Shown piece after piece: positions 7,279 to 20,704 of a stretch of DNA of 20,704 nt. How positions within the stretch are numbered: the stretch's first letter is position 1; each line of letters starts with the position of its first letter. Made by a program: the position numbers and the translations under genes. This DNA comes from a virus (Duplodnaviria; Heunggongvirae; Uroviricota; Caudoviricetes), in the IMG/VR virus record IMGVR_UViG_3300027608_000017; one strand, 5' to 3'. The notes under the pieces were generated by a model, which saw only the letters and a list, made by a program, of their open reading frames with translations, was not told the origin of the DNA and searched no databases.

Positions 7279-7611
7279 ATGGCCGACGACGCACCCCGCA
7301 AGGTTTCCACACACCTCATCGTCCTCGACGCGAACGGCCCGATTTTCTCGGGCGTCAAACGCTACCGCGTGGCCTGTACCCCGGAATCCAAGCTGCCGGA
7401 ATCGGCGTCCAACGTCGCGTTCCGCAGTGTCATCACCTGTCCACTGTGCCTCGACACGGAAGAGTTCGCGATTCTCGAAGAAGAAATGGATGGCGGTTCC
7501 GCAGCAGATCGAGCCGCCGCCAAGGCGATCAAGGCCAAGGCGGCCGCGAAGGCGGCTGCTGCCAGCCCGGCTCCCGCTCCCGTCGAGAGCGACGCACCGA
7601 GTTCTACCTGA
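7279..7611 (+). CDS. Hypothetical protein with H/C/CxxC motif and Ala/Lys-rich tail (110 aa)
   Basis: ATG abuts the previous TAA. Contains THL..., VACT, ITCPLC and C-terminal AAAKAIKAKAAAKAAAA. Confidence 0.75.
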   Translation: MADDAPRKVSTHLIVLDANGPIFSGVKRYRVACTPESKLPESASNVAFRSVITCPLCLDTEEFAILEEEMDGGSAADRAAAKAIKAKAAAKAAAASPAPAPVESDAPSST

Positions 7612-8168: not shown

Positions 8169-9821
8169 GTGCCCAGACCTGACCATACTGACGATGAGCT
8201 TCCGGAGTTCCCCTACGACGAGGGGAACCCGGACTCTTCGTTGCCGGACGAGGACGCTCAGCAGCCCGCCGCATCCGGGCGCGACGACCTGCACCACGCC
8301 AAGGCTCAACTCGACGACGACGGCCCCACCGTGGGCGAAGCCGCCAAGAGCATCGCCAAGTCCGCTGACCTGAACACAGACGCGATCCAGTCACTCGTCA
8401 GCGCCGTGGAACAACTCGCGTCCTCCCTGCCGGGCACAACACCCAGCCAGTCCACGACACTGGCCACGCCATCGCCCGCGACACCCGCCGACGAGACTCC
8501 ATCCAAGACGCCCCCGCTCGACCTCAGCCGCGTCACGGCAGGGCTAGACCGCATCTACTCGGCGATCGTGGACGGGAAGTCATCGTCCGCCGCGCCATCC
8601 GCATCGCCCGCGCCGTCCGCCGCATCACCATCCGCATCGCCCGCGCCGTTCGTCTCGCCCAATCTCGTCCCCGGCCAGAAGTCTGGCGTCGATAAGGTTC
8701 CCGCCGCTCTCACCGAGGGCGAGTACGTCATGCGCCCCGAAGCCGTCAAGACGCACGGCCTCGACTTCATGGAGGAGATCAACGCCGCCAAGGCTCCCGC
8801 CGCGAGCGAGCCGGTCAAGGGGCACTCGATCGGCGGGTTCATTGCCGGAGCAGCATCGAAGGCCGGTAAGGCTGTTGTCGGGGCAGCGAAGGCGACGAAA
8901 TCAGCCTATAGCGGCGTCATGGGTGCCGCTGATAGCGCCGAGAGCGCAGTGAAATCGGGGTTGAAAACCGCAGCGCCCTACGTGGCCAGCGAACAAGACA
9001 CGCAGTCCATCGTCACCGGCGGCGAAGCAGGCGGCGGCTTCTACAATTCCTACAAGGAAGCCACTCGCTCCGCACAAGCCCCGCAGAACGCCCCCAGCAT
9101 CGGCAACTCGGCCGCTTCAGCGGCGGTGTCCGGAGCGCTCACCGGCGGCCCACTCGCCGGAGCCGTCGCGGGAGTCGTCGCAGGCTTCAAAGCGGTCGGA
9201 GAATCCGCCAACGCAGCCTCGAAAAATCTGGAGTCCTACAGCGCCGAGATCGCCACGGCCAACGCGGAAGCCAATGTCGCGCAGATTACGGGAGACATGG
9301 ACCGGGCTTCGGCGGTTGGCGAGGACGTGGCAAGGCACACCAATGTCACGAGTGACATCAGCCAGTCGAACCAGAACCTCGAAGCGGGCTTAATGAAGGC
9401 GGGCTTGGCGATCATGAATCCACTGCTGGAACTCATTGAGCCACTGATCGGGTTCGTGAATCAGGTTCTCGGCGGCATGGCAGCCGAGGCACTCAAGTAC
9501 CTCGCCTACATCGGCGAGTGCATTGGGAAAATGCTGGAGTGCTGGCCGTTCAGCCAGCAGGGCACCGAAGCACAGATGAAGAAATTCGGGGACGATCTCC
9601 GGAAAGCGGCCAAGGGGATTGAAGACCTCGTGGATACCGCCAAGAAGGACGACGATGAAGGCGGTCTCGACATTGACCAATTCATGAACCAGTTCCTGCA
9701 AGGTCACGGGATGGGCGACGATCAGGACCAGCACAAGTTCAGCGCGGTCCGAAACGTCGGCCCCAAGAAAAAGCCGAAGTCGAAGAAAGACTGGAATGCC
9801 GCTGGCGGCGCGTTCGGCTAA
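8169..9821 (+). CDS. Tape-measure-like protein (550 aa)
   Basis: Contains DKVPAALTEGEYVMRPEAVKTHGLDFMEEIN, a motif common in tape measure proteins, then long Ala/Gly-rich helical stretches. Follows the tube gene. Confidence 0.6.
   Translation: MPRPDHTDDELPEFPYDEGNPDSSLPDEDAQQPAASGRDDLHHAKAQLDDDGPTVGEAAKSIAKSADLNTDAIQSLVSAVEQLASSLPGTTPSQSTTLATPSPATPADETPSKTPPLDLSRVTAGLDRIYSAIVDGKSSSAAPSASPAPSAASPSASPAPFVSPNLVPGQKSGVDKVPAALTEGEYVMRPEAVKTHGLDFMEEINAAKAPAASEPVKGHSIGGFIAGAASKAGKAVVGAAKATKSAYSGVMGAADSAESAVKSGLKTAAPYVASEQDTQSIVTGGEAGGGFYNSYKEATRSAQAPQNAPSIGNSAASAAVSGALTGGPLAGAVAGVVAGFKAVGESANAASKNLESYSAEIATANAEANVAQITGDMDRASAVGEDVARHTNVTSDISQSNQNLEAGLMKAGLAIMNPLLELIEPLIGFVNQVLGGMAAEALKYLAYIGECIGKMLECWPFSQQGTEAQMKKFGDDLRKAAKGIEDLVDTAKKDDDEGGLDIDQFMNQFLQGHGMGDDQDQHKFSAVRNVGPKKKPKSKKDWNAAGGAFG
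8595..8649 (+). repeat. Intragenic tandem duplication, 22-nt unit with 33-nt period (PSASPAP twice)
   Basis: CCATCCGCATCGCCCGCGCCGT at 8595-8616 and 8628-8649. Confidence 0.9.
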
Positions 9822-11877: not shown

Positions 11878-12603
11878 TCAGCCTATCTTGTCGCTCACAT
11901 GGTATTGGTGGCAGTTCGTGAGCCTCACTGGCCCGGCCTTGAAGGTGTTGGAGTGAATGTCGATGTTTTTCGATATCCATTGAAACAGCGGTCTCGTGTA
12001 GCTTTCATCAAACTCTTTGTCTGTATCGTGAATTGCGGAGCGGCAGCCGCCCTCGCTTTGGATCGCGATCGTCGTGTCTTTCATCATCGCCAGTAGAGCC
12101 ACGGAAGCCCCGAGGTTCCACAGCGATTGATGCGACCAGCCCGTGGCCAGTGAATTACGGTCGAACACGAACACATCCCGCTTGCCGGGGAGGTGCGTTC
12201 GCTCCGCCATCACAGGGCAGTACGGCATGTGTTTCCGTAGATGCTTCAGTACACCCTTGATTTCCGAGTCAGACTTCTCGGGCGATAGAGGTTCGTGGAC
12301 AACCTCCGGCTCCGGCTCCACGGCAGTCGCGTCCTTGATCGCCACCGTGAGGTTTGCCACCCGCTGCTGCAAGCGGTGTGTTTCCAGTCGCAACTCGTCC
12401 CGCTCGCGCTCAACGGCCTTGGATCGCTCAATAGACGCCTCCTTGAGTTCTATCGCCAGAGCCTCCGTGGCCTCAGCGGCAGCCAGCCGCGTTCGCAACA
12501 CGTTGACGGCTTCCTTCAGCTTCCGCAACTTCCCGAGGCCACTCACGTCGCGACTGAGATACCCCGAAAGATCCTCGAACTGCTTCTTGACTTGCGCGAT
12601 CAC
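11878..12603 (-). CDS. Hypothetical protein with N-terminal coiled coil (about 241 aa; start GTG 12603 or 12618)
   Basis: GTG at 12603 overlaps the upstream TAG (TAGTG) and follows GGAG, suggesting translational coupling. Heptad-like segment LKEAVNVLRTRLAAAE...LQQRVANL. Confidence 0.7.
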   Translation of the reverse strand: MIAQVKKQFEDLSGYLSRDVSGLGKLRKLKEAVNVLRTRLAAAEATEALAIELKEASIERSKAVERERDELRLETHRLQQRVANLTVAIKDATAVEPEPEVVHEPLSPEKSDSEIKGVLKHLRKHMPYCPVMAERTHLPGKRDVFVFDRNSLATGWSHQSLWNLGASVALLAMMKDTTIAIQSEGGCRSAIHDTDKEFDESYTRPLFQWISKNIDIHSNTFKAGPVRLTNCHQYHVSDKIG

Positions 12604-13610
12604 TATTTTGGACTCCACATATCAGCCGGGACTCGCGCCTGCTGCGGAGGCTGATTCGGGGCGAGGGATTTTATGTGCTTGGTGAGTCGGTTGAGGATGT
12701 GGAAGAACTCATCCACATTCGTCACCCGCTCCCCATGCGTGAGGATGCTCTCCAAGACGGTCTCGGCCGACTTGAGGGCGCGCAGCAAGACAACATCTTT
12801 CGGCAGCGAGGCGCATGGCCTGCCAGTCAGCCGAGACTTGATTTCCGGATCGTCATGCACAGCCGAGAGGCGATCCGAGTAGACGCTGTAGGGGTTGGCT
12901 GATTTCGGAGCCGCGTCGAAGAACGCGACCATGTAAGGCGCAGCATCAGCCACCGAGATGCGAGACTGCTTCAGCGTGTTCAGGAAGCCCACGACGGGAT
13001 TCGTGGCCTGTTCCAGAACCGAGTTGCCATGAATGTGCGGACGCAACTCCAGTAGCATCGCGTCTGGCAAGGCAGGGCCGCCCATGCGGGAGATTCGAGA
13101 CTGTAGCTCCACCGCTTCGGCAATACGCTTGAGGTCAGCCGCTTTCCAGCCTCCCATCTGAGCCACCTCGTTGTGACTCAGGCCGCGATCCACAACCAGA
13201 ACCTCAACCGCCCGGCGGCGAGTCCACTCGGCGGGTTCGGCTCGCCCCTGCATACGAGCATTGGCTAGCACGCGAATCGAAGCGAGCATGTCTCCGGAAT
13301 CGGTTTCCACGATGTACGCCGACACGCGCGTCGTTCCGTTCAAGGCGGCTGCTGACAGTCGCTGCACGCCATCCAGAACACGAAACCCGCCGTCCGACCG
13401 AGACAGGATCGGAGCGGGAGCGGGCGAACCGGATTCCATCAGCGTCGCGTACTCCATCACGGCGTCTTCGCGGATCGCGACCGGGCGGCCGATGTTCTCC
13501 CGATCCCATTCAGGACATAAGTCCTCCGGCAGACGCAGCCCGTTGGTGTAATCGAACTTGACGCCCAGCGAGGTGAGGAAGTTTTCGGTGCGACTGTCCG
13601 TCGTAAACAT
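12603..13610 (-). CDS. ParB/Srx-domain protein with HTH (335 aa; start probably ATG 13610)
   Basis: PAPILSRSDGGFRVLDGVQRLSAA carries the ParB GxxRxxA motif. DRGLSHNEVAQMGGWKAADLKRI is HTH-like. No ParA partner is adjacent. Confidence 0.75.
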   Translation of the reverse strand: MFTTDSRTENFLTSLGVKFDYTNGLRLPEDLCPEWDRENIGRPVAIREDAVMEYATLMESGSPAPAPILSRSDGGFRVLDGVQRLSAAALNGTTRVSAYIVETDSGDMLASIRVLANARMQGRAEPAEWTRRRAVEVLVVDRGLSHNEVAQMGGWKAADLKRIAEAVELQSRISRMGGPALPDAMLLELRPHIHGNSVLEQATNPVVGFLNTLKQSRISVADAAPYMVAFFDAAPKSANPYSVYSDRLSAVHDDPEIKSRLTGRPCASLPKDVVLLRALKSAETVLESILTHGERVTNVDEFFHILNRLTKHIKSLAPNQPPQQARVPADMWSPK

Positions 13611-13716
13611 GATGGAAAGGGTTCCGGAGAGATCGGCGCAAACTGAACAGTCGCTAGTACGCAAAACTCAGGGACCAAGACACAAAAAAGTGCGGTCCCG
13701 GCTCGGTTTTACTCAA

Positions 13717-13806: not shown

Positions 13807-14340
13807 ATGTCCGACGACGTGATTGATTTCGATGGCGATGCCGTGGTGATTTCGTTTCGCGGCAAGAAGTACGACCTGCTCGCCGCCGACGAGATCGACG
13901 AGATTCATTCCGAAATCCGCCGACTCGATTCGCTGATCAAGCCCGAGGATCGCCTCAGTGGCGAAGACGGCTCGCCCGCCAAGTGCCCCAACGGGGAAGA
14001 CGCGGACGGCGAGTCCCTGCCGTTCACGCACGGCAACGGCTTGGCATTCACCAATCTGCTCAAGGCGCACTTCAACGCCAAGCACGCGCTCATCGCCCCG
14101 ACGGCCACGGTCTACGCGATCTACCGGCAACTCCTCCTGAAAAAGGAGACCTACGAAAGTTTTTTCGTGAATGGGCCGAGTTCGCCACCACCTTTGGCTT
14201 CCCGCCCCCCCCAGGCTTCCGCCGACGCAGCGCTCGAAACGCTGCGATCCACCATGCAAGGCGTTTCCGAGCAGCTCACCGCCTTGAAGAGTTCTACGAC
14301 CGAATCCTCGACACCAAGTACCGAGAGCGTGACCTCCTAA
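13807..14340 (+). CDS. Tail assembly chaperone, gpG-like frame-0 product (177 aa)
   Basis: Contains a T TTT TTC slippery heptamer, followed by a low-complexity Ser/Thr/Pro tail as often seen in G-type chaperones. Confidence 0.7.
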   Translation: MSDDVIDFDGDAVVISFRGKKYDLLAADEIDEIHSEIRRLDSLIKPEDRLSGEDGSPAKCPNGEDADGESLPFTHGNGLAFTNLLKAHFNAKHALIAPTATVYAIYRQLLLKKETYESFFVNGPSSPPPLASRPPQASADAALETLRSTMQGVSEQLTALKSSTTESSTPSTESVTS

Positions 14341-14440: not shown

Positions 14441-15712
14441 ATGGTTGCCGACAACAAGCCGGACAGCATGTCATCCAAAGACCTGCTGGAAATCCAGACG
14501 ACGGCCTATCTGCCCCCGCCGAATCATCGCGGCACGATGAACGACATGGGCCTGCCCATGTTCACGCTGCGGCAGGTCGAACTGATGCGGCGCGATGAGC
14601 AAGTCAAGCTGGGCGAGCGCATCCTCAAAGCCCCCTTGATGCACATCAAGTTCGAGGTCTCCGGCCGTCCCGACGTGGCGGCCTTCGCCCAACAGCAGAT
14701 GCTCCGCGCATGGGACTCGGTGATCCCCAAGCTCACGACGGCCATGTGGTACAAGGTCTGTTGCGGCGAGCCGATCTACCGCAAGAACCAGACGACGAAG
14801 CAGATGGAGATCGCCGGGCTGAACGACTTCCATCCGTCTGACTGCGATTTCCTAGAGATCGACAAGAAGCTCGTCGGCATCCGCGTCACCGATCGCGGTT
14901 CTGTCGCGTCCGAACCGCATGACCTCTACGGCATGAAGGCGTTCCACTACATCCACCGCCAGCAGTTCGGCTCGCGCGATGGCGTTTCGGAGCTGGAAGG
15001 AGCCTATCGGCCGTGGCTGACCAAGACGGGGCGCGACGGGGCGCTTGCGTGTCTCACGCTGTGGAATTATAAGAATGCCTTCAACAGTGGCATGATGTTC
15101 CATCCACCGGGCGAGTACCAGTGGACCGACGGCAACGGCATGACGCAGATTATGCCCTACCGAGACATCGCCCGGCAGGCGATGGAGCGTAACAAGACTG
15201 GAAACGTCATGGCGTTTCCATCAGTCTTCGATGAGAAGGGGAATCTCCTGTGGCGCTACGAACAGCCCAAGATCAACGGCGATGGCTCGGGACTGATCCA
15301 GTACGTCGAGCAACTCAACACCGAGATGCTGCGCGGGATGGGCATCCCCGACGACATCATCAGCCAGACGAGCGGCACGGGATCGTATGCCGGTCGGTCG
15401 ATTCCGTTCCAAGCGTTCCTCACCAGCCAGAACGACACCGTCAAGGCGATGTTTCAGGCGGTCGAGAAACAGATCGTCGCGCATCTCTGCTGGTGGAACT
15501 TCCAGTCGCGGGACTTCGAGTTCCACGGCGTCGAAGTGGATCGCGCCAAGCTGCTGCCGATCGACCAGCCCGAAGCCCCACCGGGAGCGACCCCGCCCGA
15601 CATGAGCGGCGGCGGTGAAGACCCGAACGCGGCGATGGCGGACCCCCAACAGGCCGCGATGCTCGCCGCAGCCCAACAACAGCAGATGGCCGGAGCCGCT
15701 CCGCCCGCCTGA
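14441..15712 (+). CDS. Portal protein, Mu gp29/DUF935-like (423 aa)
   Basis: Motifs MRRDEQVKLGERILKAPL, DGVSELEGAYRPWLTK and LNTEMLRGMGIP...SGTGSYA follow the DUF935 order. Low-complexity Q/A/P C-terminus. Confidence 0.75.
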   Translation: MVADNKPDSMSSKDLLEIQTTAYLPPPNHRGTMNDMGLPMFTLRQVELMRRDEQVKLGERILKAPLMHIKFEVSGRPDVAAFAQQQMLRAWDSVIPKLTTAMWYKVCCGEPIYRKNQTTKQMEIAGLNDFHPSDCDFLEIDKKLVGIRVTDRGSVASEPHDLYGMKAFHYIHRQQFGSRDGVSELEGAYRPWLTKTGRDGALACLTLWNYKNAFNSGMMFHPPGEYQWTDGNGMTQIMPYRDIARQAMERNKTGNVMAFPSVFDEKGNLLWRYEQPKINGDGSGLIQYVEQLNTEMLRGMGIPDDIISQTSGTGSYAGRSIPFQAFLTSQNDTVKAMFQAVEKQIVAHLCWWNFQSRDFEFHGVEVDRAKLLPIDQPEAPPGATPPDMSGGGEDPNAAMADPQQAAMLAAAQQQQMAGAAPPA

Positions 15713-15753: not shown

Positions 15754-17493
15754 TTGACCGCCGCTGCCCCCAACTTCGGAATCGCCTACGCCTCACTTGG
15801 TGGCCAGCCCATCGTCACGGCGCGGAGCGCGATCCAGTCGTTCGACAAGCAGGACTGGGACGAGTCCGTCTTCGAGGGCCGCGCCAATTCGTTCACGTCA
15901 CCCCTCGGCGAAGAGTACGGCTATGGCAAAGTTCTGATGATACGGTCCAGTCTGGACGTGCTGGACACGACCACACGCTACAAGCTGAAGTTTGGCGTCG
16001 GGCAGGAAGGCAATGAGATCGAGCTGGACGGCATCTACATTCGCAAGGCCAAGCGAATCAGCCCCGGAGTCGCCCACGAAGACAAGGCGCTCTATCTCGT
16101 CGATCTCGTGGACACCCGGTACAAGCTGGCCAAGCTGCGCAAGAATGGCGTCTATCAGTTCAACTGCCGCCGGACGGGCGGGACGGCCGACAGCTACGAC
16201 GAGGCCACGCTCGACAACACCTATCCCCCGGCACGAGCATGGACCTGGATTCGTGTGATCGAGCATCTCTGGGGTCTACTGAACACCGAAGACCCCTCCC
16301 TGATCGGCACGTTCAGCGCCCATCCAAACGTGGACCTGCTGGAGGACTTCAATTATCCAGACGAAATCCTCCCCGAGAACCTGCGGTACGATGGCCTGTC
16401 GCTGTGGGAAGCCCTGAACGATGTGGTGCGCCGCGTCGGCTGCGCCATCGTGTTCGACAACGCCTTCGTCCACAACTTCTTTCTCGTGCGGCTGGGAAGC
16501 ATTGGTGGCGGCGTCTACCCAGAAGACGTGCCGCAGTTCCACAGCCAAGGCGGCTCGAAGGTCACGGTCACGAGCGCCAGTACGGCCTATTGGTCCGCCG
16601 GAAACACGACCCGCATACTCGGGGACGGGCTGTTTGCCGACGACGAGGTGTTGCAGGGCGAGTTAGTCGTTCCCAACATTATTGATGTCATGTTCCCGAC
16701 CTCCTTCGACGATCAGGCGTCCGGCGAACTGACGAGCGAGTACGGCCGCTGGTATCCCAAGTCCATCACCGGAGCGACGCTGCCCGCGACGGACTATTGC
16801 GACATGGGCGGCCGCGTGCCGCTCCCCTCCAATAACCCCTTCAGCCGCCACATCGTCTACGAGACCAAGCACGCCCGATTTGCTGCGGCTGCGGACACGA
16901 CGCCCAACAACGACGCGGACCTCGATCTACGGGCCAGAAAGATCGCCGAGGACGTGTACCGCACGCTCGTGGACTGTGCCGGTGCCCACGTCTCCTACGC
17001 GGGCATCCACTACGACGACGACAGCAACCCCACGATCCCCGGCAAGACGGTCTCGGAAGTGACCTGGGGCGACTTCGGCAACGGCCTGCGGACGGACATC
17101 TATCGCTCCCCGCCCGACCTGATGCCCACCAAGCGCCCCATCCGTGTCCTCGACGCTAAAGGCGGCGTCGGCGGCAAAATCTGGTTCAAGGTGATCTCCA
17201 TCTCCATCTACTACTGGGAGTTGCCGGGTTGCGAATACATCAGGGCGGAAGTGACTCAGAAGTCGTGTGACGCCAACGTAAACATTGGCGATATAGTTTA
17301 CATTTTCGACCCGTTTTTCTGCTGGTTCAACCTGCCGATTGCCATCATGATGCGAATCACCGGGACCGCCACGTTCGCGGAAAACGGCTTCTGGGACGGC
17401 GTGACCCCGCTCGTGTGTGGCGTCACTCCCGGCAAGTGCTTCTGGTCGGTGGATAGCGTCTGCTGTCTGGAGGAAGACTATGGCGCGTTCTAG
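15754..17493 (+). CDS. Putative tail hub/baseplate protein (579 aa) with Cys-bearing C-terminal segment
   Basis: TTG start with GAGG 8 nt upstream. LRYDGLSLWEALNDVVRRVGCAIVFD resembles hub/late-control-D segments. Ends with VCGVTPGKCFWSVDSVCCLEE. Confidence 0.55.
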   Translation: MTAAAPNFGIAYASLGGQPIVTARSAIQSFDKQDWDESVFEGRANSFTSPLGEEYGYGKVLMIRSSLDVLDTTTRYKLKFGVGQEGNEIELDGIYIRKAKRISPGVAHEDKALYLVDLVDTRYKLAKLRKNGVYQFNCRRTGGTADSYDEATLDNTYPPARAWTWIRVIEHLWGLLNTEDPSLIGTFSAHPNVDLLEDFNYPDEILPENLRYDGLSLWEALNDVVRRVGCAIVFDNAFVHNFFLVRLGSIGGGVYPEDVPQFHSQGGSKVTVTSASTAYWSAGNTTRILGDGLFADDEVLQGELVVPNIIDVMFPTSFDDQASGELTSEYGRWYPKSITGATLPATDYCDMGGRVPLPSNNPFSRHIVYETKHARFAAAADTTPNNDADLDLRARKIAEDVYRTLVDCAGAHVSYAGIHYDDDSNPTIPGKTVSEVTWGDFGNGLRTDIYRSPPDLMPTKRPIRVLDAKGGVGGKIWFKVISISIYYWELPGCEYIRAEVTQKSCDANVNIGDIVYIFDPFFCWFNLPIAIMMRITGTATFAENGFWDGVTPLVCGVTPGKCFWSVDSVCCLEEDYGAF

Positions 17494-19354
17494 GCCGCTG
17501 ATTTCAGATGGGTCAGACCCGATTGTCGGTGGCCCCAAGTGTCTTTCACATCACGCGGGAGTTAGCACAGGCATTGAAGATTGGTGTTGCTGCTGCAATC
17601 CCTGTCTCTATACCCGACCCATCAGCTTGCAGAACCCCTGCCGCTGTGTGCCGAAGCTGCTCTGTTTCGTGTTCCGTGGTGATGCCGGTCAGCGACCTTG
17701 CTGTGATGAAATCACGCTGCACGCATTCGCCAGCCTCCGAGGCACCATATTTACATACTACTCTGTAACATTTTCCGGGGGTGTTGATATCGTGCTGTCA
17801 ATCGGCAGCGATTGTAAACTCGCGTCTACGGCAGCAGAGATATCTGACGGTAATCCGGCGTTCTGGAAACTCCACTCCACCGCGTTAGGGATCGACGAAA
17901 CGTACAGGATTGACGGCAGCATCACGACGTGCCTAGCCCCTCCTCCTATCTCAATTGCCGGAGTCACAATAGAGACGGACACTGGCCCATGTGTAGGTAC
18001 GGTCACGCTGGAGTCATATAGATCAGTCAAGCTCCCGTTCAACCGAATAGACCGGCTTCCGAACGTAGATATTGCCATCCCGCCACGTACCGATCCACTT
18101 TGCAAGTGTGATTTTGCAGCTAAGACGCTGTGCGTCTGGGGTGTACGGAAACATAATCAGCCAGACGAAGGCGTCGAGTTTGTGTGGGACGAAGCCCTGA
18201 ACGACCGCTGGACCTACTCTCCGCCATGCGGCGGCTTGCTATCTCAAGAGCATATCTACCTCCGAGGCGATGTTGACGGGAACTGTTATTTAGAGCTTGA
18301 TTTCGTGCAGTCTGGCGACACGACCAACGACTGGGCTGTTCCGCCAAACTCATTCGACGGCAACAATCCGCACGACATTCGACCGGGGATGCTACGGGTT
18401 GAGTCCTGCGTCTGCGGGTTATTCGTCAGCGACTACAAAGGACAACTAGACGACAACAGGCGAGTCGTCATCACTGGCGGATACTGCGAAAGGTATATGT
18501 ACAGCCACTGTGATAAGTGCCGTTGCGTTCCCGAGAAGTTGTGTGCTTGGGGTAGCATCGACGGCGAAGTTTTTCAGGGCCAACTGACGTGGGACGGCGA
18601 AAAGTGGGCCAGTGCTGGCACGGCCTACATAGCCCCGTTTTCGTTGATCCTAGAGAAGGGCGACTGCTCTGGTTTGCCCTCTGGTAGACCTGATCCTAAG
18701 ACCTGCGGGCTTCGAGCTGGCGGCACATTTCTTGTGCCGTTTAACAAGGGAACAATCACCGAATGTGGGCCGCGTTTGTCGTTTGACCTGTCGGCTGGAT
18801 TTGATCCAGCACACCCCACTATTCACAACTTCTTGTTCGGGAGGGCAAGCCTCTGTGGCGGCTGCAAAGAGAACCAATGTGGACCATGCCTAATGCGGTG
18901 CGGTGGCCCGCCGCAGGTAATTTACGCAGACTTCGAGGCAGTCGTCTCACGGGGTCACTATCCCTACGATGACCCCACAATGCCGCCGGTAATGGACCCG
19001 GACGAACTCTGCACCATCCAAGTGCAACTGATGTACTATACGAGATGGATGGGCTCGTCTTTAGGGTGCGGCTACATGGGAACTGTGCTGATACCCGGTG
19101 GAGGTATATTTATCGTCGAATGGAGCTTCACTCCGCTGGACTTATGGTCACTAACTAGGATTAGCCCTACCGGAGTCACGCAGACTCAACTTGGTCTTTC
19201 TATTACATGGCCTTATCAGGTGTGCGATCCAATGGAATGGGTCAGCCCTTGGCAGACAGCCTACCTTATGGCTCGCCTTTGTGCGTGGGGACCAGAGGTT
19301 GAGGATCATCCCATCATCGCCATTAGCAAATGGCGAGTAACGGTCACGGAGTAA
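17480..19354 (+). CDS. Cys-rich modular protein, putative tail-tip/receptor-binding (624 aa; start ATG 17480)
   Basis: GGAGGA upstream of ATG 17480, overlapping the hub gene end. About 38 Cys by hand count. Repeated CxC-x(4-6)-LC-x-W/F modules. Confidence 0.75.
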   Translation: MARSRPLISDGSDPIVGGPKCLSHHAGVSTGIEDWCCCCNPCLYTRPISLQNPCRCVPKLLCFVFRGDAGQRPCCDEITLHAFASLRGTIFTYYSVTFSGGVDIVLSIGSDCKLASTAAEISDGNPAFWKLHSTALGIDETYRIDGSITTCLAPPPISIAGVTIETDTGPCVGTVTLESYRSVKLPFNRIDRLPNVDIAIPPRTDPLCKCDFAAKTLCVWGVRKHNQPDEGVEFVWDEALNDRWTYSPPCGGLLSQEHIYLRGDVDGNCYLELDFVQSGDTTNDWAVPPNSFDGNNPHDIRPGMLRVESCVCGLFVSDYKGQLDDNRRVVITGGYCERYMYSHCDKCRCVPEKLCAWGSIDGEVFQGQLTWDGEKWASAGTAYIAPFSLILEKGDCSGLPSGRPDPKTCGLRAGGTFLVPFNKGTITECGPRLSFDLSAGFDPAHPTIHNFLFGRASLCGGCKENQCGPCLMRCGGPPQVIYADFEAVVSRGHYPYDDPTMPPVMDPDELCTIQVQLMYYTRWMGSSLGCGYMGTVLIPGGGIFIVEWSFTPLDLWSLTRISPTGVTQTQLGLSITWPYQVCDPMEWVSPWQTAYLMARLCAWGPEVEDHPIIAISKWRVTVTE

Positions 19355-19357
19355 ATC

Positions 19358-20704
19358 ATGGGTGATTGCGATGAGTTTTTTCCCGGTAGCCGACGCCGAC
19401 AAATCTGCGAAGGGCAGTCCGAGTTGCCGATCGACACGGTAAACAAATTCCGCGTGATGTGGGGTAAGGAGCCGTTTGGATTAGGGGACGACGGCAAAAC
19501 GTACACCCTAAAAGAATCCAGCGGTGTGGTTGTGCGAATTGTTCCCCGAACAGCAGACGCGGCAACCGGTGCCGCCTGCTGTGGAAGAAACAACAGGACG
19601 CCCGAGCCAATCCGTAGAATGGTGGACGGGACTGGAGTTGGTGGACGATTGATCGAGATGTTCAAGGCTGCGGGTTTCGAGTCCTGCCAAGCCTGTTACG
19701 ACCTCGCCGCGAGAATGAATGCGTGGGGACCAGAAGGCTGCACCACGAATATGAGCGTGATCGTCGCTGACATCCTGCCACGGGCGTTGGCGTGGGAGAG
19801 CAGCAAGGTCGGCTGGTGGGCCAAGCTCCTCCCCGAAGCCGTTACGGAAGCCGCAATCAAGTTGATGGTCGAGCAGGCGATAGCGACCGCCAAGCCGCTG
19901 GAGTGGACAATTGACGCTCCAGCACCTACGGGACCAAGGCAACGACCACGGGTCGTCCCTACGGCACCGGTCGTGTCGCTACAGACCGACCGCAAGATCG
20001 GAACCGTCACCCAGCCAGCAGAAATCGCGAAGCAAGACGGTTGGTGGAATGATGCGGACGTGCAACAGCAACACCGTGACCGAGCGACGAGATTCATCAA
20101 GACGATCCCGCGATACCCGGACCACTTTGAGGGGCGAGGCATCGTCATCACGGGAGGCGGAAAATACTTCGTCTCGGCCTACATCACGATCCGAGTCATC
20201 CGGCACGTTGACTGCAAGCTGCCCATCGAACTCTGGTATCTCGACGGCGAGATGGACGACGAGATGGTCGGCATGGTGGCCGAGTACGGTGTCACCTGTC
20301 ACAACGCGAGCGAGCTTGCACGAGGCACGGGCTACTTCCTTGACCACTGGTGGAAGGGGTGGCAGCTTAAAGCGTTCGCGTTGCTGCACTCTTCATTCAG
20401 GGAAGTGTTGATGCTGGATGCCGACAGCTACCCGGTTCGCGATCCTTCTTTCGTCTTCGACTGGCCGGAGTACCTCAAAACGGGAGCGATTATCTGGCCG
20501 GATATTGGATCAAGTGCGAGATTGTTCCCACCACTTGCCGCTCGTGTTCTCGGTGTGCCTCAGTTCACGGAAGGGTCAGCAGAATCAGGGCAGTTGGTGT
20601 TCAACAAAGAGTTGACATGGCAGGCGTTGTGTTTGGCGAAACATTACAACGCCGATGCGGATTACATGTACCACATCGTTTACGGTGACAAGGACACTTT
20701 CCCT
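19358..20704 (+). CDS. Fusion protein: Cys-motif N-terminal domain plus GT71/Mannosyl_trans3-like glycosyltransferase; 3' truncated (449 codons visible; not in ORF track)
   Basis: ATG 19358, 3 nt after the previous TAA, open to the window end. Motifs GRGIVITGGGKY (from 20132), LPIELWY, KAFALLHSSFREVLMLDADSYP (DxD at 20417-20425), AIIWPD, ESGQLVFNK and YGDKDTF (GDKDTF at 20684-20701) are characteristic of MNN1/MNN2-type mannosyltransferases. Confidence 0.88.
   Translation, partial: MGDCDEFFPGSRRRQICEGQSELPIDTVNKFRVMWGKEPFGLGDDGKTYTLKESSGVVVRIVPRTADAATGAACCGRNNRTPEPIRRMVDGTGVGGRLIEMFKAAGFESCQACYDLAARMNAWGPEGCTTNMSVIVADILPRALAWESSKVGWWAKLLPEAVTEAAIKLMVEQAIATAKPLEWTIDAPAPTGPRQRPRVVPTAPVVSLQTDRKIGTVTQPAEIAKQDGWWNDADVQQQHRDRATRFIKTIPRYPDHFEGRGIVITGGGKYFVSAYITIRVIRHVDCKLPIELWYLDGEMDDEMVGMVAEYGVTCHNASELARGTGYFLDHWWKGWQLKAFALLHSSFREVLMLDADSYPVRDPSFVFDWPEYLKTGAIIWPDIGSSARLFPPLAARVLGVPQFTEGSAESGQLVFNKELTWQALCLAKHYNADADYMYHIVYGDKDTFP

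Follow-up and report, generated by a model that had tools for sequence, protein, structure and literature searches.

A GT71 glycosyltransferase gene paired with a cysteine-rich protein gene at the end of the tail block of an uncultured phage linked to Planctomycetota

The GT71 locus

The window analyzed here is a 20,704-nucleotide stretch of viral DNA (IMG/VR record IMGVR_UViG_3300027608_000017) that ends inside an open reading frame. The ATG of this frame lies at window position 19358, 3 nt past the TAA (19352–19354) of a gene for a cysteine-rich protein, with a GGAG 8 nt upstream, and the frame stays open through the window end for 449 codons. Its translation carries six motifs: GRGIV, LPIE, KAFALLHSSFREVLMLDAD, WPD, ESGQLVFNK, and GDKDTF. 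The initial annotation had reported both this unlisted frame, lacking a stop within the window, and the full GT71 motif series, and both were recovered as described. The source genome is a complete viral record of 112,930 bp with 100-bp direct terminal repeats, belonging to an uncultured phage linked to Planctomycetota. Extending the sequence into that record, as had been proposed, supplied the missing C terminus: the gene occupies genome positions 24753–26357, encodes 534 amino acids, and would end at position 20962 of an extended window. The features of the locus, in window coordinates, are as follows.

15754–17493, + strand: g26, a tail-module protein of 579 aa whose C-terminal domain has BLASTP matches in relatives
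17143–17487, + strand: C-terminal Cys-bearing domain of g26, about 110 aa, residues 464–578 (BLASTP)
17480–19354, + strand: Cys-rich protein of 624 aa, 38 of them Cys; final structural gene of the block and predicted docking partner
18923–19351, + strand: C-terminal domain of the Cys-rich protein, residues 482–624; predicted docking site
19358–20704, + strand: GT71 protein frame, cut by the window end and completed in the full genome
19358–19492, + strand: head peptide, residues 1–45, with invariant C4, F7, R12, C17, N29, and R32; predicted docking element
19610–19912, + strand: helical Cys-bearing domain, residues 85–185, with the signature C110-x-x-C113 ... M-N-x-W-G-P-x-G-C128
20033–20704, + strand: catalytic domain of the retaining GT-A type, GT71 (PF11051), from residue 226 and truncated at the window end (Pfam, profile alignment, and model)
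20417–20425, + strand: DXD metal-binding motif D354-A-D356, aligned to Mnt2p Asp277/Asp279

Catalytic domain

The match to PF11051 (Mannosyl_trans3; E value of 4.7e-38, 131.6 bits against a curated cut-off of 22) was restricted to residues ~226–534. A profile of 101 such domains aligned with Saccharomyces cerevisiae Mnt2p (PDB 7xjv) at an E value of 6e-20, placing K338, D354/D356, S410, and D444-K445 on Mnt2p Lys261, Asp277/279, Ser366, and Asp398-Lys399. In the yeast enzyme, Lys261, Ser366, Asp398, and Lys399 hydrogen-bond the mannose of GDP-mannose, and Asp277 and Asp279 form the Mn2+-binding DXD motif (PMC13756512). D354-A-D356, K338, D444, and K445 are invariant among the 101 sequences, at least 90% of which share S410. 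In the profile alignment H486 occupies the position of the third metal ligand of Mnt2p, Asn459; histidine is nearly invariant in this column across the prokaryotic and viral branch, and by analogy with the histidine of GT8 enzymes H486 is a plausible metal ligand, though the residue differs from the asparagine of Mnt2p. The window includes K338 and D354-A-D356 and ends at or before S410, D444-K445, and H486.

An AF2 model of the catalytic domain (pLDDT, 93.3) returned the four Mnt2p chains 7xjv A–D as its top Foldseek matches (E value of 4e-12, TM score of 0.59, ~16% identity), followed by UGGT (GT24), XXYLT1, glycogenin and LgtC (GT8), and WbbM, all retaining GT-A enzymes; this order of neighbors equals the one published for Mnt2p. 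The original assignment to GT71 and PF11051 thus holds on sequence score, on fold, with Mnt2p nearest, and on active-site residues. The two proteins part company after the GDKDTF motif, where the phage enzyme has 87 residues and Mnt2p ~158. The phage segment is modeled as a three-stranded sheet plus one helix, and the profile alignment with Mnt2p stops at the Asn459 position. In Mnt2p a GT71-specific C-terminal domain of ~140 aa with two disulfides binds the acceptor (PMC13756512). Because the region that forms this site is about half as long in the phage enzyme, the acceptor specificity of the yeast enzyme cannot be carried over to it.

No transmembrane or hydrophobic segment was found in the GT71 protein (maximum 19-residue hydropathy, 1.09). 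Judged from its sequence, it is most likely a soluble, cytoplasmic, catalytically intact retaining GT-A enzyme, and its donor is most likely GDP-mannose, as suggested by the conservation of the residues that bind mannose and by linkage to the PMI-type cupin described below. The protein matched no PHROG family and no NCBIfam model, and tblastn against 50,697 deposited phage genomes at an E value of 1e-3 gave no match; it thus falls under no named annotation family, phage or bacterial.

Distribution and phylogeny of GT71

The enzyme had been introduced as a fungal-type protein from a mainly eukaryotic family, a framing that we have abandoned. We found the GT71 domain in no fewer than 249 prokaryotic genome stretches and 149 viral contigs, and the closest named relatives of the catalytic domain are chromosomal genes of Planctomycetota, at 41–53% identity. 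In a phylogeny spanning fungal and bacterial members, as the initial annotation had advised, the phage clade groups with these chromosomal genes (support of 99 in a quick tree), and a very long branch (length, 2.99; support, 100) separates the fungal sequences from those of prokaryotes and viruses. The traits of the fungal Golgi enzymes MNN1/MNN2 were not found in the phage enzyme, which has neither a membrane anchor nor a phylogenetic grouping with fungal members; it appears to be a bacterial-type GT71 enzyme that was not derived from fungi. The quick tree placed the phage clade within the Planctomycetota. A host-to-phage direction of transfer was nevertheless set aside, as the AU test did not reject a tree constrained to unite all 21 cellular sequences to the exclusion of the phage clade (P = 0.84), and this constrained tree even scored above the free one. 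We claim only that the phage clade and Planctomycetota group together. GT71 has been treated as a fungal Golgi family, yet its prokaryotic and viral members form a large, uncharacterized branch. A conserved operon of Planctomycetota belongs to this branch, whose soluble, compact enzymes lend themselves to structural and biochemical work.

Adaptor module and its partner

Residues 1–225 form a separate module that has no Pfam match. The first 190 residues are a two-part adaptor, here called the N-module, made up of the 45-residue head peptide and the Cys-bearing helical domain (AF2 pLDDT, 84 to 91). A fold search with the N-module gave a best Z score of 6.0, on a helical bundle and below the noise level that the tool quotes for helical folds; the best match in BFVD had an E value of 0.05, and a PDB profile search found nothing below an E value of 0.1. 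The helical domain is an uncatalogued domain associated with glycosyltransferases. It stands free or fused beside GT71 genes in 10 of 80 other viral loci, and a profile search for the helical domain or adaptor returned about 900 representative clusters. Thirteen of 20 longer fusions sampled carried a Pfam domain, nearly always one of sugar chemistry. Behind the N-module lie GT71, GT2, GT4, an unknown domain, or none, and the swapped domains also include a nucleotidyltransferase and a methyltransferase. One alternative catalytic domain behind the same adaptor (alignment A5) had no Pfam or PDB match; GT71 was rejected as its identity (hhalign probability against GT71, 0.2), and its atlas look-alikes, DUF8361 clusters and RgpF, are leads only. 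Since the adaptor family is large and mostly fused to glycosyltransferases of several folds, it may mark many unrecognized phage glycosylation systems.

The gene upstream belongs to a rare family, with 21 clusters among 5.8 billion proteins and about 30 conserved cysteines. The Cys-rich protein had no Pfam, PHROG, or PDB-profile match and no usable atlas match, and it is called a tail protein from gene order only. A gene for an N-module protein directly follows a gene of this family, at a spacing of −4 to +6 nt, in 12 of 12 loci, five of which were found independently of GT71 (three through the Cys-rich protein and two through distant relatives of the N-module). A head-peptide profile retrieves every enzyme that neighbors a Cys-rich protein, including one (L002) in which the head peptide is present and the helical domain absent. 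The N-module and its Cys-rich partner are constant across related phages while the catalytic domain is exchanged.

On the other side of the Cys-rich protein, the C-terminal domain of g26 matched the gene upstream of that protein in seven relatives (BLASTP; L004, L012, L014, L015, L100, L101, and L102). In relatives the Cys-rich protein is without exception preceded by a domain of this type, sometimes fused and sometimes a small protein of its own. Atlas look-alikes of g26 are viral tail-protein clusters (DUF5048, DUF5047, and Sipho_Gp37) and are leads only. In relatives the enzyme gene lies two to four genes beyond the tape measure; the GT71 gene was thus correctly placed in the tail operon, at the distal end of the tail gene block, a position that is clearest in the relatives. 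For the window genome the term tail block rests on the relatives and on the g26 look-alikes, since an upstream 423-aa protein is only a putative portal (weak Portal_Mu match, 25.4 bits against a cut-off of 23.9).

Structure prediction of the complex of the enzyme and the Cys-rich protein scored 0.62, versus 0.00 for the best control. In the benchmark for this score, 58 of 80 solved complexes attained the mark, as did 2 of 110 mismatched pairs; these counts hold only roughly here, as the prediction used our own alignments. Runs shared at least 34% of contacts, with a partner pLDDT of at least 61. Neither chain has a solved relative, so the score does not draw on a known structure. The predicted interface joins enzyme residues 8–34, a segment containing invariant residues of the N-module (alignment A3), to residues 482–624 of the Cys-rich protein. 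The head peptide is accordingly predicted, from the model, to dock the enzyme onto the C-terminal domain of its partner.

Sugar cassette

The gene that follows encodes a cupin and overlaps the GT71 stop by 13 nt. The cupin matches only the PMI part of GMP/PMI (PF01050, 81 bits; TIGR01479 positions 352–467). Such a PMI cupin was seen with GT71 in three loci, and downstream of the non-GT71 enzymes none was called. Two methyltransferases follow the cupin in the window genome, and methyltransferases follow in most loci. The domains of the cassette are GT71, cupin, and class I methyltransferase; no transmembrane-like segment was found in any of these proteins, and no initiating protein glycosyltransferase was evident in the cassette. 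GC3 is 0.57–0.68 across the block from 22.8 to 27.3 kb and 0.77–0.83 in the structural genes. The phage encodes an integrase 40 kb from the cassette; in L101 an integrase stands directly after it. A promoter and terminator scan around the cassette returned counts at chance level, with a consensus that may not suit the host, and thus does not separate expression in a late operon from expression as a “moron.”

Tracts rich in Ser, Thr, and Pro occur in two small proteins and a 550-aa protein of the window lineage. They are not conserved across nine related loci, the only other case being one tape measure, and Ser/Thr tags were rejected as acceptor marks for the group. The acceptors first proposed, a Ser/Thr-rich decoration C-domain and the tape-measure N terminus, gain no backing from conservation, as such tracts were confined to the phage's own lineage and that single tape measure.

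Candidate roles of the enzyme

The best reading of this locus, which we hold as a leading possibility at somewhat below even odds, is that the enzyme mannosylates the tail tip during assembly. Mannosylation of the virion's own proteins had been suggested from the start and is still the preferred reading, but its grounds have changed: they are now the docking module and its pairing with the Cys-rich protein, the PMI cupin, and the methyltransferases. The enzyme would be built in three layers, a head peptide, a flexible linker to the helical domain, and the catalytic domain. The head peptide would tether it to the C-terminal domain of its Cys-rich partner, the structural protein that closes the tail block. 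Late in infection, we infer, the tethered enzyme would add mannose to the Cys-rich protein, to a neighbor, or to a glycan already present on them. The co-transcribed PMI-type cupin would raise the mannose supply, and the two adjacent SAM methyltransferases would methylate the mannosylated product. With docking module and partner held constant and the catalytic domain exchanged, the surface chemistry of the tail tip would diversify. Several observations count against this reading. Ser/Thr-rich tags, which typify other candidate glycosylation systems of phages, show no conservation in this group, and the block of lower GC3 at the operon end also fits an accessory moron. The fungal GT71 enzymes that have been characterized lengthen mannose chains already in place rather than initiating glycans on protein (PMC13756512); together with the lack of an evident initiating glycosyltransferase in the cassette, this also weighs against the reading.

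Were the cassette such a moron, it would mannosylate and methylate a glycan of the host envelope, altering a receptor in lysogenic conversion or superinfection exclusion. The integrase, the presence of one directly after the cassette in L101, the position of the cassette beyond the last structural gene, its lower GC3, and the closest named relatives, chromosomal Planctomycetota genes likewise paired with a methyltransferase, all suit such a role. We consider it unlikely, as it leaves a conserved docking module strictly paired with one structural protein without a function, and as translational coupling ties the enzyme gene to a tail gene in all 12 loci. No separate promoter was seen, though the scan was at chance level, the cassette proteins are not membrane embedded as in Gtr-type systems, and the integrase of the window genome is 40 kb distant. 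The docking module would have a role if the enzyme were instead anchored at the tail tip of the mature particle and delivered at infection, there to use host GDP-mannose on a host target. A virion-carried enzyme and host-glycan modification were both alternatives offered in the initial annotation, and each keeps some probability. Tailspikes and delivered (polymorphic) effectors are likewise built from a constant N-terminal adaptor and interchangeable C-terminal enzymes, and the modeled docking to a tail-end protein would suit delivery as well. What makes this improbable in our view is that the PMI cupin and methyltransferases have no adaptor and would be useful only where they are expressed, in the late infected cell; moreover, nearly all the fused domains build glycans and are not toxin-like, and flexible linkers with a monomeric GT-A domain are unlike the architecture of a fiber or spike. 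In the broader form of this idea, to which we likewise give only a small chance, the N-module, with about 900 clusters, would be a general tail-tip adaptor holding an anabolic enzyme on the mature virion as a delivered “warhead.” If that were true, a virion-held glycosyltransferase would use the nucleotide sugars of a new host to rewrite its target or receptor at infection, a biosynthetic counterpart of tailspike depolymerases and effector-loaded secretion spikes.

Two further roles are far less probable. The gene's place beside the distal tail genes, and the docking predicted there by the model, could suit a GT71 domain serving mainly as a sugar-binding module for receptor recognition. We consider this very unlikely, given that the residues binding metal, donor, and mannose are all invariant or almost invariant in phage, bacterial, and fungal members, which indicates that catalysis has been retained, and that donor-supply and tailoring genes are linked to the enzyme. 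Least likely of all is the glycosylation of hypermodified bases in phage DNA as a defense against restriction. A search with a working control found no gene of the thymidylate-synthase/dCMP-hydroxymethylase family in the genome (a Tet/JBP search also gave no match but was uninformative, as its control genomes were equally silent), and the enzyme gene is coupled to a tail gene rather than to nucleotide-metabolism genes, with an adaptor that pairs with a structural protein. A weak DNA-methylase-like gene does lie 4 kb downstream, and phage glycosyltransferases are known to modify bases in this way (10.1101/2023.12.21.572611 and PMC13326640).

Comparison with known systems

The phage enzyme shares its Pfam family and retaining GT-A core with Mnt2p of the S. 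cerevisiae MNN1 family (CAZy GT71, PDB 7xjv; Hira, Kadooka and Oka 2026, PMC13756512). Site by site, the phage enzyme retains the DXD motif and the contacts to the mannose moiety of GDP-mannose. The two are only ~16% identical and a very long branch apart, and the phage enzyme has no membrane anchor or Golgi lumen context. Its third metal ligand would be His where Mnt2p has Asn, its C-terminal acceptor domain is about half as long, and an N-terminal docking module has been added. Closer at hand is an uncharacterized chromosomal operon of Planctomycetota (Ser/Thr kinase, ~290-aa protein, GT71, and methyltransferase), in which GT71 is followed by a methyltransferase, as in the phage. The GT71 proteins of that operon, however, lack the head peptide and helical domain and lie among cellular genes, with no phage structural neighbors.

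The Gtr-type cassettes for O-antigen glucosylation (P22 and SfV) encode membrane proteins that act on lipid-linked sugars. Like them, the genes described here modify sugars and lie just past the tail genes of a temperate phage. In our cassette, by contrast, all proteins are soluble, and the enzyme gene is both coupled to a structural gene and paired with it; with no transmembrane-like segments, the cassette did not show the Gtr set of membrane flippase, bactoprenol glycosyltransferase, and serotype-specific glycosyltransferase. Modular tailspikes and tail fibers combine a conserved N-terminal anchor with exchangeable C-terminal enzymatic domains (depolymerases). The resemblance lies in an N-terminal attachment element, horizontally swapped C-terminal enzymes, and a gene located at the far end of the tail block. 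The domains swapped here are, unlike those of tailspikes, anabolic and dependent on nucleotide sugars, so that they cannot work outside the cell, and the tether is flexible rather than a rigid trimeric stalk.

To our knowledge, mycobacteriophages are the only phages for which experiments have shown that phage enzymes glycosylate the virion. These phages glycosylate capsid and tail-tube proteins with their own glycosyltransferases (Freeman 2023, as cited in PMC12619734 and PMC12363180). The enzymes of these systems (Che8 gp110, Corndog gp38, Myrna) are believed to modify the structural proteins of their own phage while these are still in the cytoplasm, ahead of release (Freeman et al. 2023, through PMC12363180, PMC12619734, and PMC11256854). 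Their glycans are carried on the C-terminal tails of capsid and tail-tube subunits, whereas no conserved Ser/Thr tag was found here. The enzymes also belong to a different glycosyltransferase family, in keeping with the absence of tblastn matches in the 50,697 deposited phage genomes, and the host phylum is Actinobacteria there and Planctomycetota here. Targeting in the present system appears, from the model, to proceed through a docking peptide to one tail-end protein. This logic is unlike that of the mycobacteriophages: a short docking peptide and a helical domain appear to tether exchangeable sugar enzymes. Should the tail tip prove to be glycosylated, exchange of this chemistry could matter for host recognition in a phylum about whose phages next to nothing is known.

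Gene structure and domain organization

The initial annotation described an ORF missing from the gene track, and its outline of that gene was borne out: the frame opens with an ATG at 19358, three bases past the TAA (19352-19354) of the Cys-rich gene and with GGAG 8 nt upstream, contains all six of the motifs listed for it, and stays open to the end of the window. Extension into its own genome, a complete viral record of 112,930 bp with 100-bp direct terminal repeats in which the window spans positions 5396-26099, placed the stop at genome position 26357, so that 534 residues (P0002) are encoded.

Features in and beyond the window
Window 11878-13664, minus strand: two genes within the plus-strand structural block
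Window 14441-15712: 423-aa protein
Window 15754-17493: g26, 579-aa tail-module protein
Window 17480-19354: Cys-rich gene
Window 19358 to genome 26357, plus strand: P0002
Genome 26345-26683, outside the window: 112-aa cupin
Genome 26345-28154 (L007:6345-8154): cassette of the cupin and two class I SAM methyltransferases
Genome 28504-28920 (L007:8504-8920), minus strand: 138-aa gene

Membership of P0002 in GT71 is secure: residues ~259-534 matched PF11051 (Mannosyl_trans3) at 131.6 bits (cut-off, 22). A Pfam search with residues 1-255 gave no match, and the first homology search returned two groups of hits, one to the GT71 part versus one confined to the first ~190 residues, whose members bear other C-terminal domains. 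This N-terminal module consists of a head peptide (residues 1-45; C4, F7, R12, C17, N29, and R32 invariant in the module alignment), a disordered linker, and a confidently modeled helical domain (residues 85-185; pLDDT, 84-91) with a conserved C110-x-x-C113 ... W-G-P-x-G-C128 pattern. Searches for structural or sequence relatives of the head peptide and helical domain found none that was convincing, and cellular planctomycete GT71 proteins have neither part.

An exhaustive profile search with the module recovered 900 representative clusters at E <= 1e-3, 61 of them at E <= 1e-30, whose members are free-standing proteins of ~180 aa or fusions of 400-870 aa. Domains were recognizable in 13 of 20 longer fusions sampled, and nearly all of these belong to sugar chemistry, so that the module serves enzymes of this kind as an adaptor.

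Domains in the 13 fusions with recognizable domains
GT2: 9
GT1/GT4-type: 2
TOD1/MUCI70 GT-like domain: 1
MobA-like nucleotidyltransferase: 2
Phosphoribosyltransferase: 3
Methyltransferase: 1

Behind the same adaptor, a catalytic-looking domain of ~270 aa (P0055-type) replaces GT71 at L015:6580-7410, L016:6580-7416, and L101:9627-10433; it had no Pfam or PDB match and no profile relation to GT71. In the atlas it looks most like viral DUF8361 clusters, with a weaker likeness to RgpF.

Pairing with the Cys-rich protein

The Cys-rich family is rare (21 clusters in 5.8 billion proteins), each member having 31-46 cysteines, ~30 of them conserved. At all 12 loci examined, the adaptor gene lies directly 3' of the Cys-rich family gene, its start falling between -4 and +6 nt from the preceding stop.

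Loci with the pair: enzyme behind the adaptor, and route to the locus
Own genome: GT71; the window
L004, L002: GT71; homologues of the GT71 protein
L012, L015, L016: unknown domain; adaptor homologues
L014: GT2; adaptor homologue
L100, L102: GT71; Cys-rich protein
L101: unknown domain; Cys-rich protein
L184: GT4; distant adaptor relative
L185: free-standing module; distant adaptor relative

Five of these loci carry GT71 behind the Cys-rich gene (own genome, L004, L002, L100, and L102); in 80 other viral GT71 loci, neither the head peptide nor a Cys-rich neighbor was present. The pairing is thus a property of the adaptor, not of GT71 as such. At 10 of these 80 loci, all on IMG/VR contigs (L117, L119-L122, L131, L132, L150, L159, and L169), the helical domain occurs as a separate gene (107-166 aa) upstream of GT71, several directly adjacent, or fused to GT71, as in L117. 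The viral GT71 genes neighboring the free-standing forms are otherwise unrelated.

A Cys-bearing domain of ~110 aa, the C terminus of g26 in the own genome, always lies 5' of the Cys-rich gene. In relatives this trio is found 2-4 genes past a tape-measure-like protein that is long and has almost no Cys and that in L014 matches PhageMin_Tail; in L102 the trio ends a compact capsid-to-tail operon. In the own genome, a minus-strand insert and the 423-aa protein separate the tape-measure-like genes from g26, and the label "tail" is accordingly putative there, resting on synteny and on the likeness of g26 to tail proteins, which gives no more than leads. The syntenic relative L100 lacks the two minus-strand genes, consistent with an inserted cassette bracketed by a repeat. 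The 423-aa protein, inside the apparent tail block, matches Portal_Mu marginally (25.4 bits; cut-off, 23.9), is 99% identical in L100, and shares 34% identity with a 608-aa protein of L051 over the N-terminal part of the latter.

Predicted docking of the head peptide

Co-folding of the Cys-rich protein with the adaptor, from alignments of 24 and 22 rows, respectively, scored 0.62, against 0.00 for the best control; among solved complexes 58 of 80 attain this mark, as do 2 of 110 mismatched pairs, counts that are only rough here because our own alignments were used. At least 34% of contacts agreed between runs, with partner pLDDT of at least 61. Confident model contacts join enzyme residues 8-34 to Cys-rich residues 482-486, 510-514, 581-586, and 621-624. 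The P0002 head peptide is thus predicted to dock on the Cys-rich protein, as a model and not a measurement. The prediction is consistent with two independent observations: the interface segment contains the invariant adaptor residues, and the head peptide alone is common to all enzymes neighboring Cys-rich proteins, including the L002 enzyme, which has no helical domain. Neither chain has a solved relative, so the result does not reproduce a known complex.

The 138-aa protein (GTG start; GC3, 0.88) has an N terminus resembling the head peptide (profile E, 1e-5; 21.6 bits), a Cys cluster at its C-terminal end, and an orthologue in the same place in L100; the upstream part of its long ORF is noncoding. 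It may be a second client of, or competitor for, the predicted docking site.

Origin of the GT71 domain

GT71 had been presented as fungal-type and mainly eukaryotic, a framing that our searches do not support. A single peptide pattern recovered at least 249 confirmed GT71 stretches in species-representative prokaryotic genomes, and at least 149 IMG/VR viral contigs carry the domain. The best ~20 prokaryotic matches are all Planctomycetota (41-53% identity), with Verrucomicrobiota, Acidobacteriota, Bacteroidota, and others ranking lower. In a 179-row tree, fungal members are split off by a branch of length 2.99; the query groups with metagenome-only sequences in a clade of 19 rows (99*), itself part of a larger one of 71 rows (99*) in which each of the 21 named genomes is from Planctomycetota. 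Nesting of the phage clade within Planctomycetota is drawn in this tree, but an AU test left unrejected (p 0.84) the alternative in which cellular Planctomycetota sequences stay together and exclude it. What we claim is kinship with the host phylum and no direction of transfer. P0002 relatives were sought in deposited phage genomes, PHROGs, and NCBIfam without a match.

Three close homologues on Planctomycetota MAG contigs (L097, L098, and L099) lie in an operon of Ser/Thr kinase, ~290-aa protein, GT71, and methyltransferase, an ordinary chromosomal one amid typical planctomycete genes; the likely host phylum thus has a cellular glycosylation unit that is still uncharacterised. The "fungal" surprise of GT71 dissolves, and interest shifts to the adaptor, uncatalogued yet widespread, through which sugar enzymes that can be exchanged are paired with a cysteine-rich protein at the tail end.

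The sugar cassette and its possible role

The cupin gene starts 13 nt ahead of the GT71 stop, and the match of its product to bifunctional GMP/PMI is limited to the phosphomannose-isomerase part (PF01050, 81 bits; TIGR01479 positions 352-467). Cupin and GT71 occur together in the own genome, L100, and L102, and the cupin was called downstream of no non-GT71 enzyme in the examined loci. Methyltransferases lie 3' of the enzyme in most relatives, as in the cellular operon. Together with the conserved mannose-binding residues, these genes support the view that the sugar is mannose and that methylation serves in tailoring. GC3 is 0.57-0.68 for the Cys-rich gene, P0002, the cupin, and the first methyltransferase (lower-GC3 block, window 17417 through 20704 and on to genome 27343) versus 0.77-0.83 for upstream structural genes. 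A second sugar cassette (genome 79394-81681), after a 1199-aa fibre-like gene, has a weak GT8-like match and a radical-SAM plus Methyltransf_24 fusion; the head peptide is absent from it.

We tentatively favor a role in assembly, at somewhat less than even chances, in which the head peptide would tether the enzyme and the tail tip would be mannosylated as it is built. Against this stand the lower GC3 of the block and the fact that characterised GT71 enzymes extend glycans without starting any on protein, no initiating enzyme being evident. Nor are Ser/Thr-rich tags conserved in the group: the tracts listed below also occur in L100, a close relative, but not across the wider group, and conservation gives no support to the acceptors proposed initially, a Ser/Thr-rich decoration C-domain and the tape-measure N terminus.

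Ser/Thr/Pro-rich tracts
Window 8169-9821: residues 85-170 of a 550-aa tape-measure-like protein
Window 13807-14340 and window 7279-7611: C termini of two small proteins

Lysogenic conversion by the cassette is unlikely; its position at the operon end, the cellular kin of the GT71 domain, and an integrase present in the genome (adjoining the cassette in L101) would suit it, but it explains neither why the coupling to a single structural protein is so strict nor why any membrane component is absent. An enzyme carried on the virion and delivered to the cell seems similarly doubtful: an adaptor with a swappable domain is the architecture it would have, yet the cupin and methyltransferases, all without adaptor, fit it more poorly. 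Glycosylation of DNA is very improbable, since linkage is to structural genes and a search for a hydroxymethylase-type gene, with a working control, found none.

Comparison with yeast Mnt2p

The only solved GT71 enzyme is yeast Mnt2p (7xjv), to which a profile of 101 homologous domains aligned at E 6e-20. Once the chain numbering had been shifted by the 10 residues that separate it from that of the paper, each active-site residue listed for Mnt2p (PMC13756512) had a P0002 counterpart, invariant or nearly so across the alignment, with indices checked against the sequence.

Active-site residues of Mnt2p and P0002
Lys261 (mannose binding): K338
Asp277/Asp279 (DXD motif, Mn binding): D354/D356
Ser366 (mannose binding): S410
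Asp398-Lys399 (mannose binding): D444-K445
Ser180 (nucleotide binding): T265
Asn459 (third metal ligand): H486

The enzymes also differ. At the third metal ligand P0002 has His, not Asn. The stretch after GDKDTF, from which Mnt2p builds its acceptor site, has only about half that length in P0002, and yeast acceptor specificity is therefore not transferable; and P0002, in whose sequence no hydrophobic segment was found, is cytoplasmic, unlike the fungal Golgi enzymes. In fold comparisons, a confident AlphaFold model of residues 226-534 (pLDDT, 93.3; pTM, 0.93) retrieved Mnt2p as its best structural match (E 4e-12), followed by UGGT, XXYLT1, WbbM, glycogenin, LARGE1, and LgtC, all retaining GT-A, in the same order that the authors of the Mnt2p structure give for their enzyme (PMC13756512).
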